DNA of 16,845 bases from a virus. Taxonomy: Duplodnaviria > Heunggongvirae > Uroviricota > Caudoviricetes. Numbering within the stretch: the stretch's first letter is position 1; each line of letters opens with the position of its first letter. The notes under the pieces are model-generated. The model did no database searches, was not told the origin of the DNA, and saw only the letters and a program-made list of their open reading frames with translations. Both the position numbers and the translations under genes were made by a program. Positions 2,280-16,835 of this stretch are shown in pieces. The DNA lies in the IMG/VR virus record IMGVR_UViG_2585427778_000001, one strand, 5' to 3'.

Positions 2280-2855
2280 TCACCCATCTTGCTGCGGTGC
2301 TACTATTGAAAAGTACTCACACCCTTTAGCCCAAATAGTTTTGATAGTTGTCCAACTGACTGGAACCTTGATTTCGATTCTTCCGCTGCCGTCACAAGTT
2401 TCGCAATCATCATCACCAAAGCATTCCGGGCAGCTTATAAACGTAGTTTCTGAAAATTCACCGGATAGCACACCCTTAGCGCCGTTCTCAGCGGTTAGTT
2501 TCTTCGGCACTATAACCCAACCATCCGGAGTTACCGGAGAGTTGCCATTTATATCGAAGTTTGGCTCTGCGTCCTGAACCAGGAGGATGTAACCATTCTT
2601 GGCAGTATCAAGTTCTAACGCCTCGGTGACGGTACCGAAATAGCGATTACCTAAATCCGCATCACAAGTGCTTACATCAATGGAAACCTCCATGCCTTCG
2701 ATTAATTCTGGCAAGTTGTAAGTTTGGCTTACAGGTTCTGCTCCCAGTGATGCCAGTGCAATTCGTGCCAGTTCCATTTGTTCGCCACGAGTAAGCCCGT
2801 TTTCAAGCGGATTTTTAATGAACAATTCAATACGTTCTTTGGTAATAGTGGTCAT
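2280..2855 (-). CDS. Hypothetical protein, 191 aa, with C-terminal zinc-ribbon-like motif CPEC-x6-CETC
   Basis: Intact ORF with ATG start and AAGGA Shine-Dalgarno-like sequence; lies 10 bp downstream of the Tgt-like gene on the same strand. Cys pairs at CPECFGDDDCETCDGSG. Confidence 0.6.
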   Translation of the reverse strand: MTTITKERIELFIKNPLENGLTRGEQMELARIALASLGAEPVSQTYNLPELIEGMEVSIDVSTCDADLGNRYFGTVTEALELDTAKNGYILLVQDAEPNFDINGNSPVTPDGWVIVPKKLTAENGAKGVLSGEFSETTFISCPECFGDDDCETCDGSGRIEIKVPVSWTTIKTIWAKGCEYFSIVAPQQDG

Positions 2856-2865
2856 TTGTTAGTCC

Positions 2866-3621
2866 TTAAACTGCTAGTTGCAATTGCATTTCAAAGCGGT
2901 CGCGTTGTTCACAATACGCAAGAGAACCAGGGCTATTGTGTGCCTCAATCCGTTCTACCATTAATGCTGCGCGTGTCTCTTTACTTGCAGGTGCATAAGC
3001 CCCAGACCAGGCTTTATCAATACCGATGTTTCGAGCGACGTTCGTACTATCTGCGCTGGCTAAGGGTAATTTTGTGAATATCAGCGGATTTAACATGCGC
3101 AATCCATGTAGTTTCGTAACCGGCTGACCATGCCCATCAACAATGTGACGAATCAGGTCTTTCATTCTGGCTACCGCAAGAGTTGGGCGCTTTACGTCAT
3201 AGTCGCCACAACTACCGATAGCCACTCGCGGAAACTCATTGCACAAATGAATAAATCGCTCGTCACTTTCATTCATGTGCCACACTGGAACGCCAGCTAG
3301 TTTTCCGTGAGGCCACTCATTCAGAAGCGCATCATTTTCCTCCTCTCCGCCATCAATAACATCCGGGATAATGGCAAAATCGAATCCTGGGTGATTCTTC
3401 CAGCGAGCAACAAACTCGTAGTAATCGCTCCAGTCGATTTTGTTTTTGCCAGCTGCTTTCCAGGCGGTGAATGCACCGTTGTCCAGCGCGAACGACTGAC
3501 AGTATTCAGCCGCGAGATTGATCTGGCCTGAATGCGCAAAACTGATAAACGCATGTCGCCCTTTCCATGCTCTCATTGCGCACGTATCAGGAGTAATAGG
3601 CCCACCGTGGTAGTGAATCAT
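2866..3621 (-). CDS. Putative Tgt/DpdA-family transglycosylase-like protein (about 251 aa from MIHYHGG; the ORF extends to 3663)
   Basis: Strong AAGGAG Shine-Dalgarno sequence before the ATG at 3621. Ordered motif resemblance to the Tgt catalytic core, from memory of E. coli Tgt: LDNGAF vs TDSGGFQ; DFAIIPDV vs DIVMIFDEC; VAIGSCG vs YAVGGLAVG; HGLRMLNP vs YLMGVGKP; ADSTNVARNIG vs FDCVMPTRNARNG. No C-terminal CxCxxC...H zinc subdomain. Confidence 0.5.
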   Translation of the reverse strand: MIHYHGGPITPDTCAMRAWKGRHAFISFAHSGQINLAAEYCQSFALDNGAFTAWKAAGKNKIDWSDYYEFVARWKNHPGFDFAIIPDVIDGGEEENDALLNEWPHGKLAGVPVWHMNESDERFIHLCNEFPRVAIGSCGDYDVKRPTLAVARMKDLIRHIVDGHGQPVTKLHGLRMLNPLIFTKLPLASADSTNVARNIGIDKAWSGAYAPASKETRAALMVERIEAHNSPGSLAYCEQRDRFEMQLQLAV

Positions 3622-3622
3622 C

Positions 3623-4030
3623 TCACTCTCCTTTGATGCGAATGCCAGTAGCGCGGATTGCATCGATGACTTCAGAAACTTTGTATGCCATTACCGTTTG
3701 GTAATCATCGTGAAAATCTGTTCGATGAAGCATGCTGCTACGTTCCGGGAGCAGTATTTCCCGCGCTTCCAGTTCTGCAATGCGCTTTTTTGCTGCTTCC
3801 AGTTCATCCAGTAATTCCAGCACGGTAGCCGGATTAGCCTTGGCAACAAAATCCCGGACTGGCTTACAATCAATCTCCGCAATGGGTTGATACGATGTGT
3901 AGCCATGCTGTCTTGTATAACTACCGTGACGAATAACGAAAAAATCACCATTTATTTTTTTAGCCTGCCACTTATCTTCACCGGCTTTCTCTGCCGCTTC
4001 ACGCAGTGCCTGAGAGTTAATTTCGCTCAC
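3623..4030 (-). CDS. Ead/Ea22-like family protein (135 aa)
   Basis: N-terminal QALREAAEKA and coiled-coil LELLDELEAAKKRIAELEA segments typical of prophage Ea22-like proteins as recalled; GTG start overlaps the upstream stop (GTGA), and its stop lies 1 nt from the downstream ATG. Confidence 0.55.
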   Translation of the reverse strand: MSEINSQALREAAEKAGEDKWQAKKINGDFFVIRHGSYTRQHGYTSYQPIAEIDCKPVRDFVAKANPATVLELLDELEAAKKRIAELEAREILLPERSSMLHRTDFHDDYQTVMAYKVSEVIDAIRATGIRIKGE

Positions 4031-4297: not shown

Positions 4298-4324
4298 AAT
4301 AATAAAAAAGGAGCCTGTAGCTCC
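4298..4324 (-). terminator. Intrinsic terminator on the minus strand between orf61 and the accessory cassette
   Basis: Hairpin GGAGC-tacag-GCTCC followed on the minus strand by TTTTTTATTATT. Confidence 0.6.
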
Positions 4325-4346
4325 CTGATGATTTTGCTTTTCATGT

Positions 4347-7720: not shown

Positions 7721-7921
7721 TCAGGCAGCTTTGTTGTTCTGTTTACCAAGTTCTCTGGCAATCATTGCCGTCGTTCGTATTGCCCATTTATCGACATATT
7801 TCCCATCTTCCATTACAGGAAACATTTCTTCAGGCTTAACCATGTATTCCGATTGCAGCTTGCATCCATTGCATCGCTTGAATTGTCCACACCATTGATT
7901 TTTATCAATAGTCGTAGTCAT
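7721..7921 (-). CDS. ral: Ral, restriction alleviation protein, 66 aa
   Basis: Translation MTTTIDKNQWCGQFKRCNGCKLQSEYMVKPEEMFPVMEDGKYVDKWAIRTTAMIARELGKQNNKAA matches lambda Ral. Confidence 0.95.
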   Translation of the reverse strand: MTTTIDKNQWCGQFKRCNGCKLQSEYMVKPEEMFPVMEDGKYVDKWAIRTTAMIARELGKQNNKAA

Positions 7922-7991: not shown

Positions 7992-8118
7992 ATATCACCT
8001 TAAATAGTGGATAGCGGTAGTAAAGATTGTGCCTGTCTTTTAACCACATCAGGCTCGGTGGTTCTCGTGTACCCCTACAGCGAGAAATCGGATAAACTAT
8101 TACAACCCCTACAGTTTG

Positions 8119-8670
8119 ATGAGTATAGAAATGGATCCACTCGTTATTCTCGGACGAGTGTTCAGTAATGAACCTCTGGAGAGAACCATGTATATGATCG
8201 TTATCTGGGTTGGACTTCTGCTTTTAAGCCCAGATAACTGGCCTGAATATGTTAATGAGAGAATCGGTATTCCTCATGTGTGGCATGTTTTCGTCTTTGC
8301 TCTTGCATTTTCGCTAGCAATTAATGTGCATCGATTATCAGCTATTGCCAGCGCCAGATATAAGCGATTTAAGCTAAGAAAACGCATTAAGATGCAAAAC
8401 GATAAAGTGCGATCAGTAATTCAAAACCTTACAGAAGAGCAATCTATGGTTTTGTGCGCAGCCCTTAATGAAGGCAGGAAGTATGTGGTTACATCAAAAC
8501 AATTCCCATACATTAGTGAGTTGATTGAGCTTGGTGTGTTGAACAAAACTTTTTCCCGATGGAACGGGAAGCATATATTATTCCCTATTGAGGATATTTA
8601 CTGGACTGAATTAGTTGCCAGCTATGATCCATATAATATTGAGATAAAGCCAAGGCCAATATCTAAGTAA
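8119..8670 (+). CDS. sieB: Superinfection exclusion protein SieB (the ORF begins at a TTG at 8116; first ATG at 8119)
   Basis: Plus-strand gene between ral and N and convergent with N, as in lambda; hydrophobic N-terminal region (IVIWVGLLLL, FVFALAFSLAI). Confidence 0.85.
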   Translation: MSIEMDPLVILGRVFSNEPLERTMYMIVIWVGLLLLSPDNWPEYVNERIGIPHVWHVFVFALAFSLAINVHRLSAIASARYKRFKLRKRIKMQNDKVRSVIQNLTEEQSMVLCAALNEGRKYVVTSKQFPYISELIELGVLNKTFSRWNGKHILFPIEDIYWTELVASYDPYNIEIKPRPISK

Positions 8671-13087: not shown

Positions 13088-13528
13088 ATGAAAAAACTAA
13101 CCTTTGAAATTCGATCTCCAGCACATCAGCAAAACGCTATTCACGCAGTACAGCAAATCCTTCCAGACCCAACCAAACCAATCGTAGTAACCATTCAGGA
13201 ACGCAACCGCAGCTTAGACCAAAACAGGAAGCTATGGGCCTGCTTAGGTGACGTCTCTCGTCAGGTTGAATGGCACGGTCGCTGGCTGGATGCAGAAAGC
13301 TGGAAGTGTGTGTTTACCGCAGCATTAAAGCAGCAGGATGTTGTTCCTAACCTTGCCGGGAATGGCTTTGTGGTAATAGGCCAGTCAACCAGCAGGATGC
13401 GTGTAGGCGAATTTGCGGAGCTATTAGAGCTTATACAGGCATTCGGTACAGAGCGTGGCGTTAAGTGGTCAGACGAAGCGAGACTGGCTCTGGAGTGGAA
13501 AGCGAGATGGGGAGATCGGGCTGCATGA
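13088..13528 (+). CDS. ninB: NinB (Orf family recombination mediator), 146 aa
   Basis: Matches lambda NinB starting MKKLTFEIRSPAHQQNAIHAVQQILPDPTKPIVV... Confidence 0.9.
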   Translation: MKKLTFEIRSPAHQQNAIHAVQQILPDPTKPIVVTIQERNRSLDQNRKLWACLGDVSRQVEWHGRWLDAESWKCVFTAALKQQDVVPNLAGNGFVVIGQSTSRMRVGEFAELLELIQAFGTERGVKWSDEARLALEWKARWGDRAA

Positions 13529-14052
13529 CTATCAAATCAAATACGCCAGCACACGACAAGGACTGCTGGCAAACGCCGCTTTGGCTTTTTGATGCACTGG
13601 ATATTGAGTTTGGATTCTGGCTGGATTCGGCAGCGAGCGACAAAAATGCTCTGTGTGCTCACTGGCTAACTGAGGCCGACGACGCGCTCAATTCTGAGTG
13701 GGTAAGCCACGGTGCAATCTGGAATAACCCACCGTACAGCAATATCAGGCCGTGGGTGGAAAAAGCTGCTGAGCAGTGCATACAACAGCGACAGACGGTA
13801 GTTATGCTTGTGCCAGAGGATATGTCAGTCGGATGGTTCAGCAAGGCTCTGGAGAGTGTCGACGAAGTTCGCATTATCACTGATGGACGGATTAATTTTA
13901 TCGAACCATCGACAGGGCTGGAGAAGAAGGGAAACAGCAAAGGCTCCATGCTGCTGATTTGGCGACCGTTCATCAGTCCTCGACGGATGTTTACTACCGT
14001 ATCCAAAGCGGCATTGATGGCGATCGGGCAGGGCGTCAGGAGGGCGGCATGA
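13525..14052 (+). CDS. Phage orphan DNA N6-adenine methyltransferase (Dam-like), about 175 aa, in the position of lambda ninC
   Basis: NPPY catalytic motif (WNNPPYS) and the DKDCWQTP N-terminal motif typical of phage N6-adenine methyltransferases; ATG overlaps the ninB stop (ATGA). Confidence 0.8.
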
Positions 14053-16137: not shown

Positions 16138-16413
16138 GTGGCTTCTGTTTCTATCAGCTGTCCCTCCTGTTCAGCTACTGACGGGGTGGTGCGTAACGGC
16201 AAAAGCACCGCCGGACATCAGCGCTATCTCTGCTCTCACTGCCGTAAAACATGGCAACTGCAGTTCACTTACACCGCTTCTCAACCCGGTACGCACCAGA
16301 AAATCATTGATATGGCCATGAATGGCGTTGGATGCCGGGCAACTGCCCGCATTATGGGCGTTGGCCTCAACACGATTTTACGTCACTTAAAAAACTCAGG
16401 CCGCAGTCGGTAA
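16138..16413 (+). CDS. insA: IS1 InsA, 91 aa (GTG start)
   Basis: Translation [43 protein letters not shown]... matches IS1 InsA; the A6C frameshift motif TTAAAAAACTC (about 16389-16395) lies near its 3' end. Confidence 0.95.
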
Positions 16414-16835
16414 CCTCGCGCATACAGCCGGGCAGTGACGTCATCGTCTGCGCGGAAATGGACGAACAGTGGGGCTATGTCGGGGCTAAATCGCGCCAGC
16501 GCTGGCTGTTTTACGCGTATGACAGGATACGGAGGACGGTTGTTGCGCACGTATTCGGTGAACGCACGCTGGCCACGCTGGAGCGTCTTCTGGGCCTGCT
16601 GTCGGCCTTTGAGGTCGTGGTATGGATGACAGATGGCTGGCCGCTTTATGAATCACGCCTGAAGGGAGAACTGCACGTTATCAGCAAGCGATATACGCAG
16701 CGCATTGAGCGGCATAACCTGAATCTGAGGCAGCATCTGGCAAGGCTGGGCAGGAAGTCACTGTCGTTCTCAAAATCGGTGGAGCTGCATGACAAAGTCA
16801 TCGGGCATTATCTGAACATAAAACACTATCAATAA
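16332..16835 (+). CDS. insB: IS1 InsB frame (167-aa ORF; expressed as the InsAB' transposase by -1 frameshift)
   Basis: Translation matches IS1 InsB (…[21 protein letters not shown]…[49 protein letters not shown]). Confidence 0.9.

Follow-up and report, generated by a model that had tools for sequence, protein, structure and literature searches.

A compact singleton DpdA-like gene in the early region of a lambdoid prophage of Escherichia coli

Introduction

What is the role of a gene for a transglycosylase-like protein in the early region of a lambdoid prophage that lacks the genes for 7-deazaguanine synthesis? The question is raised by a stretch of 16,845 nucleotides (nt) of caudoviral DNA (IMG/VR record IMGVR_UViG_2585427778_000001; hereafter the window). 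From the letters alone, one of its minus-strand genes had been proposed to encode a relative of tRNA-guanine transglycosylase (TGT; Tgt in E. coli) and of DpdA, the phage enzyme that inserts 7-deazaguanines into DNA. The gene, here called the dpdA-like gene, is located as follows:

2866..3621, minus strand: dpdA-like gene for a 251-amino-acid (aa) compact 'singleton' protein of the DpdA family, a predicted guanine transglycosylase (stop codon included)

We consider it probable, at roughly 60%, that the gene encodes a minimal, zinc-less singleton phage DpdA, i.e. a DNA-guanine transglycosylase.

Singleton DpdAs have been described as a 'third group' found in 76 phages (Hutinet et al. 2019) and as the cluster 'DpdA/TGT_1' (Simoliuniene et al. 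2021). They cluster by host, with the gamma-Proteobacteria among the host groups, and functional divergence was considered possible (Hutinet et al. 2019). The entries of Supplementary Data 1 of the 2019 study include HK106, SfI, SPN3UB, BTP1, SEN1, SE131, PEAT2 and 7-11. The claim, made in the original prediction, that such an enzyme would be unusual in a lambda-like operon does not hold: the singleton class catalogued in 2019 includes lambdoid and P22-like phages, and the BTP1 protein is 93% identical to the one studied here. Since the dpdA-like protein is an ortholog of these catalogued singletons, what it represents is already known.

Homology to DNA-modifying DpdA enzymes

Sequence and profile comparisons showed that the dpdA-like protein is homologous to the validated DpdA1 enzymes, the phage DpdAs that are encoded inside clusters of queuosine-pathway (que) genes. 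The PHROG 887 family, annotated as 'queuine tRNA-ribosyltransferase', matched the protein with an E-value of 5e-104, and tblastn retrieved the DpdAs of Salmonella phage 7-11 (36% identity, 2e-24), Pantoea phage MED16 (38%, 2e-34) and Pseudomonas phage Iggy (26%, 1e-5). More specifically, a profile of 58 family members was aligned by hhalign to the Iggy enzyme with a probability of 98.8% (E 8e-17) and to four DpdA1s from within que clusters with a probability of 99.4% (E 7e-22). These matches support the assignment of the protein to the Tgt/DpdA-like enzymes.

The general libraries were silent. There was no match for the protein in hmmscan searches of Pfam, NCBIfam and PADLOC or in a phmmer search of the PDB; the Pfam TGT model (PF01702) matched neither the protein nor any of the 58 family members even at E <= 10; PDB searches with the family profiles gave only noise, and scanning all 58 members with Pfam yielded nothing relevant. 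This silence is uninformative, because the validated Iggy DpdA, like the DpdAs of 7-11 and MED16, has no Pfam TGT match either; the score of E. coli Tgt with the same model is 560 bits. The profile check named with the original prediction was thus negative for Pfam and the PDB, and the family link came from PHROG 887 and the DpdA profiles.

A sequence bridge from the phage DpdAs to TGT and the archaeosine TGT (arcTGT) is formed by a 307-aa TGT-family protein (L018). A combined profile of singletons and DpdA1s aligned collinearly to L018 over 124 columns (E 2.8e-4, probability 41%), and L018 itself is related to arcTGT (1.4e-16), TGT (~1e-13) and the bacterial DpdA structure 7UI4 (2e-7). The motif pairs between the phage proteins and L018 are DFAIIPD/DFPIPPD, RVAIGS/GFAIGG, KLHGL/PLHVFGLG and SADSTNVA/SVDSSSYA, where SVDSSSYA corresponds to the arcTGT nucleophile motif FDSASYA. 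L018 is encoded on a plasmid of Picosynechococcus sp. PCC 73109 (703-1626) with a DEAD/DEAH helicase gene on each side, and this locus looks like a compact bacterial dpd-type module.

Active-site residues

The general acid/base of bacterial DpdA is Asp95 and its nucleophile is Asp256, and base exchange is abolished when either is mutated; the base is read by Asp130 and His181 and stacked by Phe99, and the three Asp residues are invariant across TGT and DpdA (PMC10164549). E. coli Tgt contains the corresponding motifs TDSGGFQ (Asp89) and FDCVMPTRNARNG (Asp264), together with the zinc motif CDCYTC (residue 302). The two motifs from which the original prediction started, LDNGAF and ADSTNVARNIG, occupy residues 46-51 and 190-200 of the 251-aa protein. 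The residues that we assign to the predicted active site are encoded at:

3481..3483, minus strand: Asp47 codon (LDNGAF), predicted general acid/base equivalent to Asp95 of bacterial DpdA and Asp89 of Tgt; aligned to Iggy D69
3361..3363, minus strand: Asp87 codon (IIPDVI), predicted base-recognition residue equivalent to Asp130 of bacterial DpdA and Asp143 of Tgt; aligned to D111 of DpdA1 and DFPIPPD of L018
3106..3108, minus strand: His172 codon (KLHGLRML), conserved His typical of DpdA-type enzymes; aligned to Iggy H193
3049..3051, minus strand: Asp191 codon (SADST), predicted nucleophile equivalent to Asp256 of bacterial DpdA and Asp264 of Tgt; aligned to SCDSS of DpdA1 and VDSSSY of L018

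D47, F51, H172, S189, D191 and S192 do not vary among the 58 family members, and conservation is 90% or more at further positions, D87 and H115 among them. In an alignment made jointly with four DpdA1s and the 7-11 and MED16 proteins, the invariant positions were D47, A50, F51, H115, H172, G173, D191 and S192. The assignments of Asp191 and Asp87 are supported by alignment; the equivalence of Asp47 to TGT Asp89 is reasonable on the strength of its motif and of the D47-x3-F51 spacing, which equals that of Asp95-x3-Phe99 in bacterial DpdA. The two catalytic aspartates of the original prediction were therefore reasonably chosen, Asp191 by alignment and Asp47 by motif, spacing and invariance. The inferred lack of a C-terminal zinc subdomain was borne out as well: neither a CxCxxC motif nor the CDCYTC of Tgt is present, and the five Cys residues of the protein are scattered. 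A His-Asp pair at a distance of 19-22 residues is also present in the TGT-like protein Cap10 (H226/D248).

Predicted fold

The structural model showed a TGT-type (beta/alpha)8 barrel. It was made with AlphaFold2 from the alignment of 58 sequences, contains eight beta strands that alternate with helices, and has a predicted local distance difference test score (pLDDT) of 91.9 and a predicted template modelling score of 0.88. An earlier model, for which the alignment was shallow, was of poor quality (pLDDT 72.5), and we disregarded its Foldseek matches.

Distribution and purifying selection

At E <= 1e-3 the family of the dpdA-like protein exceeds 7,800 protein clusters, and it has 813 representatives at 50% identity. 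Of the 5,426 complete E. coli genomes 201 contain it, and it is present on at least 533 IMG/VR contigs. We have measured the constraint on 2866-3621 against three orthologs (L033, L043, L060). At 77-94% aa identity the synonymous sites are saturated (proportion of synonymous differences, pS, 0.74-0.93), whereas the proportion of nonsynonymous differences (pN) is 0.04-0.17. The ortholog that is 94% identical in amino acids is only 81% identical in DNA, with a third-position identity of 53%, a pS of 0.74 and a ratio of nonsynonymous to synonymous substitution rates (dN/dS) of ~0.01. The open reading frame (ORF) is a real, functional gene under extreme purifying selection, of a strength that is unusual for an 'accessory' gene. 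A 93%-identical copy is encoded by GenBank entry OR850331.1 (1,719 bp, 'Staphylococcus phage SA 1298 Kay'), which is probably a contaminant or carries the wrong label.

Start codon and adjacent genes

The longest ORF, 2866..3663 on the minus strand, has 265 aa when counted from its first ATG. Translation almost certainly begins with the ATG at 3621, which is preferred because a strong Shine-Dalgarno site, AAGGAG, lies 7 nt upstream, because the RefSeq protein (WP_000582234.1) starts there and because all homologs open with MIHYHGG. The start at 3663 was rejected, as it has no Shine-Dalgarno site and falls inside the Ea22-like gene. The span of 2866-3663 in the original prediction thus stood as an ORF and was corrected at its start, with the loss of 3622..3663; the length of about 251 aa that it gave agrees with the ATG at 3621, the RefSeq start and the N-termini of the homologs. 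The adjacent features are:

3622..3663, minus strand: in-frame upstream extension, probably untranslated; inside the Ea22-like gene, without Shine-Dalgarno site
3628..3633, minus strand: Shine-Dalgarno sequence AAGGAG, located 7 nt upstream of the start codon at 3621, as read from the sequence
3623..4030, minus strand: Ea22-like gene (Pfam Ead_Ea22), upstream context only; near the dpdA-like gene in 13 of 80 related loci
2280..2855, minus strand: 191-aa ORF (PHROG 60, function unknown), downstream context only; begins 10 nt beyond the dpdA-like stop and occurs in 12 of 80 related loci

The TGA stop of the Ea22-like gene ends 1 nt before the ATG at 3621, a proximity that suggests translational coupling of the two genes. 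The 191-aa ORF, which accompanies the dpdA-like gene in just those 12 loci, is not an obligate partner. It is intact in the window and contains a CPECFGDDDCETCDGSG Cys cluster, and the Prokaryotic Genome Annotation Pipeline (PGAP) has only a 138-nt pseudogene fragment at this position.

Queuosine genes and possible partners

None of queC, queD, queE, folE or a transporter gene was found in the window by tblastn with phage QueC, QueD, QueE, FolE and YhhQ-family queries, for which the positive controls scored. The PGAP annotation of a 100%-identical prophage likewise lists no que genes, only lambdoid ones. With the Pfam and PHROG scans also negative, the absence of queC, queD, queE and folE from the window, as originally predicted, was confirmed. 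The survey was extended to 80 viral loci of relatives at >=67% identity (1.09 Mb in total), in which no que or transporter gene occurred within 10 kb. A conserved partner gene was sought in the same loci and none was found; the most frequent neighbour recurs in at most 21 of the 80, and the dpdA-like gene is therefore a self-contained module. There is no ParB-like ATPase or helicase among its neighbours in the window, which are lambdoid early genes.

More distant homologs offer a clue to the substrate. A homolog with 39% identity directly adjoins a gene of the QueD/PTPS family in Caulobacter phage DMCA (Pfam PTPS 22.5 bits against a cutoff of 22.4 bits, E 1e-4), and one with 33% identity is two genes away from a Vut_1 protein in Rhizobium phage RHph_X2_30. 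The Vut_1 family includes the preQ0 transporter YhhQ. These neighbours support a free 7-deazaguanine base as the substrate. YhhQ homologs are present in some phages (Hutinet et al. 2019).

Prophage context and expression

The window covers the left arm together with the immunity and replication region of a lambdoid prophage that is inserted next to ybhC, at the lambda attachment site. The leftward order is int, xis, small ea genes, the 191-aa ORF, the dpdA-like gene, the Ea22-like gene, a DksA/TraR-like zinc finger gene, DUF1382 and DUF1317, followed by exo, bet, gam, kil, cIII, ral, sieB, N and the repressor gene; the rightward order is cro, cII, O, P, ren, nin genes including one for a Dam-like methyltransferase, rusA and Q, with IS1 at the window end. 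In Pfam and PHROG scans the ORFs next to the dpdA-like gene matched only ea-region families of unknown function. A pseudogene for a DNA polymerase III theta subunit (HolE-like) with an internal stop lies on the int-proximal side at ~1652-1933 on the minus strand (PGAP, identical prophage).

No sigma-70-like promoter was predicted near the dpdA-like gene on its strand. From the likeness to lambda we infer that the gene would be part of the delayed-early pL transcript and silent in the lysogen. A terminator-like hairpin is present at 4308-4326 on the minus strand, upstream of the block of DksA-like, Ea22-like, dpdA-like and 191-aa genes on the coding strand, and read-through of this hairpin would need N-mediated antitermination. 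Terminator-like sites are over-represented between 1300 and 4400, where 9 were found against 2.7 expected.

The same prophage encodes the antirestriction protein Ral (7721-7921, minus strand) and a Dam-like N6-adenine methyltransferase (13525-14052, plus strand). Together with the dpdA-like gene, the prophage would therefore contain up to three separate functions in DNA modification or anti-restriction.

An IS1 transposase gene is located at 16332-16835 on the plus strand (Pfam DDE_Tnp_IS1, 6e-74), and the window ends inside the element. At this IS1 end, at ~16083, the match to the otherwise identical prophage of the pig isolate E. coli 2018-18.25PC stops. The latter prophage has an ISApl1-mcr-1.1-PAP2-ISApl1 composite transposon downstream of Q (34857-39509 of locus L002, outside the window), which makes the same phage backbone the host of a colistin-resistance insertion. 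Its sieB is split by IS1, a gene that is intact in the window (8116-8670).

Proposed function and alternatives

The DNA chemistry reported for three phages with a singleton DpdA, expressed as the deoxynucleoside (dADG) of 7-amido-7-deazaguanine (ADG), is as follows:

Phage 7-11: 50 dADG per 10^6 nt, 0.02% of G
Phage Orion: no modification found; host without preQ0 pathway
Phage MED16: 354 dADG per 10^6 nt, 0.13% of G; no protection from the tested enzymes with G-containing sites

These values imply ~9 modified bases per genome for 7-11 and ~33 for MED16, or ~5-35 for a lambda-sized genome. To our knowledge, nobody has explained how dADG is formed without DpdC. Our literature search turned up no report of experiments on a DpdA from a lambdoid or temperate phage, and we infer the function within this lambdoid clade by analogy. 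The DpdA of phage 9g, when expressed alone in E. coli, yields 84-790 dPreQ0 per 10^6 nt from host preQ0, independent of tgt, and the 7-deazaguanine supply of the host is therefore sufficient in principle. Modification also carries a cost, because the GrwAB system restricts DNA with 7-deazaguanine; escape mutants map to dpdA.

The reading as a singleton DNA-guanine transglycosylase is carried by a protein that is conserved and under selection, folds as a barrel in the model, is homologous to DpdA1, has kept the catalytic residues and has no fixed partner. After induction or infection pL would drive transcription of the gene along with that of the other delayed-early genes. The enzyme would then excise specific guanines from double-stranded phage DNA, and probably also from host DNA, via a covalent intermediate between Asp191 and the deoxyribose, with Asp47 as general acid/base and with Asp87, a His and Phe51 holding the base. 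The host queuosine pathway would supply the incoming base, either preQ0 or ADG, an intermediate of QueC. If 7-11 and MED16 are a guide, dADG or dPreQ0 would end up sparse and probably sequence-specific, without bulk replacement, and our leading guess for the benefit is evasion of some particular DNA-targeting defence.

Two results qualify this reading. Firstly, hhalign comparisons of the family profile with E. coli Tgt alone and with a 10-sequence TGT profile were not significant. We regard this as a problem of power of small profiles, not as counter to homology, because the DpdA1 profile fails against the same TGT profile as well (5%). Secondly, Foldseek ranks generic barrels highest for the protein, tryptophan synthase alpha among them. 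As to the likeness to canonical TGT in the original prediction, the motifs are indeed present, but by sequence alone the resemblance is not statistically significant in the direct comparison with the TGT profile. The two-motif match was a lucky but correct lead that was confirmed only via the DpdA intermediates and the fold comparison.

The strongest alternative, in our view unlikely, is a TGT-fold enzyme that has diverged to a target other than DNA, onto which it would transfer a deazaguanine-linked or other moiety, to host tRNA, or mainly to the role of a guanine-excising glycosylase, with the trace dADG as a side reaction. The precedent is Cap10, which handles protein-linked 7-amido-7-deazaguanine. 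However, no Cap9/QueC-like gene, annotated CD-NTase (cGAS/DncV-like nucleotidyltransferase) gene or other fixed partner accompanies the dpdA-like gene in the 80 loci, its strongest sequence homology is to the DNA-modifying DpdA1, and the zinc subdomain and C-terminal parts of the tRNA-binding TGTs are absent. Moreover, dADG is present in the DNA of two singleton phages, and the QueD- or YhhQ-family neighbours of some homologs point to free-base 7-deazaguanine substrates.

A second alternative, which we rate lower still, retains the insertion of 7-deazaguanine into DNA but makes it a sparse epigenetic mark, for packaging, replication, regulation or the discrimination of self from non-self, instead of an anti-restriction measure. 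The implied density of ~5-35 modified bases per genome, the lack of restriction protection in MED16, the presence of Ral and a Dam-like methyltransferase for restriction evasion in the same prophage and the extreme purifying selection on an accessory gene are all in line with such a role. On the other hand, the high modification in DpdA1 phages does protect from restriction, as is apparent from the CAjan delta-dpdA mutant, and even a sparse modification could block a defence that recognizes a rare motif. That the gene encodes an unrelated TIM-barrel enzyme (TrpA-like or aldolase-like) or is a decaying moron is highly improbable: the Foldseek matches and the lack of Pfam, NCBIfam and PDB sequence matches would suit it, and the DpdA1 homology and the purifying selection effectively refute it.

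A more specific proposal, which we put forward with considerable doubt, is that the compact singleton clade of temperate enterobacterial phages is not a bulk anti-restriction modifier and either places a few site-specific dADG marks, from the host QueC intermediate and without DpdC, or acts on a Cap10-like non-DNA target. If true, the clade would serve an undescribed purpose, e.g. the evasion of one defence, competition between phages or the control of packaging or replication.

Significance

Identifying the gene as a singleton DpdA adds a member to an already known class and mostly fills a hole in annotation. Since no phage DpdA, not even the validated Iggy enzyme, is picked up by NCBIfam or the Pfam TGT model, the protein goes by the PGAP label 'hypothetical protein' in thousands of records besides the ~200 complete E. 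coli genomes. Annotators that are based on PHROG assign the name 'queuine tRNA-ribosyltransferase', which wrongly implies a tRNA substrate. The real question concerns the role of the singleton DpdAs, which are abundant and strongly selected and yet give only traces of dADG and no restriction protection in the two tested phages. A lambda-type prophage of E. coli, a host with que-pathway mutants, would make this question directly testable. If the DNA is modified, nanopore basecalling, restriction-based typing and the sensitivity to GrwAB-type systems could change in carrier strains.

Comparison with known systems

Cap10 (PDB 9NTN) is a TGT-like protein of type IV CBASS (cyclic oligonucleotide-based antiphage signalling system) and is encoded in an operon with the QueC-like Cap9 and a CD-NTase with an M(G/S)G(G/S)GG N-terminus. 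No QueC-like gene was found by tblastn in the window or the 80 loci, and no CD-NTase appeared in the neighbour annotations, without a dedicated CD-NTase search. Tgt (PF01702) and the archaeosine TGT act on tRNA, whereas DNA is the expected substrate of the dpdA-like protein, which is ~125 residues shorter and has neither the CxCxxC...H zinc site nor a Pfam TGT match. The bacterial DpdA of Salmonella Montevideo (PDB 7UI4), which belongs to the Dpd restriction-modification island, is longer (413-436 aa), depends on the ParB-like ATPase DpdB and acts together with DpdC and the restriction genes dpdD-K; none of these partners is present at the dpdA-like locus, and direct sequence similarity is undetectable.

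The DpdA1 enzymes of the Queuovirinae and relatives (Enterobacteria phage 9g, Escherichia phage CAjan and Pseudomonas phage Iggy) have the homologous core in common with the dpdA-like protein, including LD(N/S)GAFS, the Asp of LD.IG/PDVI, HG and S.DS(T/S), and presumably also the base-exchange chemistry; in addition, the 9g enzyme works without a DpdB partner. They differ in their length of ~310 aa, with an additional segment at the N-terminus and a C-terminal extension of ~90 aa that the 251-aa protein lacks, and in that folE, queD, queE and queC lie alongside. In these phages 16-32% of G is modified and restriction protection is proven, whereas for the dpdA-like gene, without que genes, sparse modification is expected.

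The closest likeness is to the singleton group, in size, in motifs and in the lack of que genes in the phage. BTP1 (SIU02687) and SPN3UB are 93% identical to the dpdA-like protein, SfI 68%, 7-11 36% and MED16 gp38 38%, and in BTP1 and SfI the gene occupies the same early-region slot beside Ea22-like or DUF1317 genes. The present copy differs in its location in an E. coli prophage at the lambda attachment site (ybhC), outside the 2019 list, and in its PGAP label of 'hypothetical protein'; the DNA chemistry of the group has been measured only in 7-11 and MED16, distant (36-38% identity) and virulent phages. Thus, the dpdA-like protein is distinct from DpdA1, the bacterial Dpd enzymes, Tgt and Cap10, and in its homology, barrel fold, active-site residues and lack of que genes it agrees with the singleton DpdAs.
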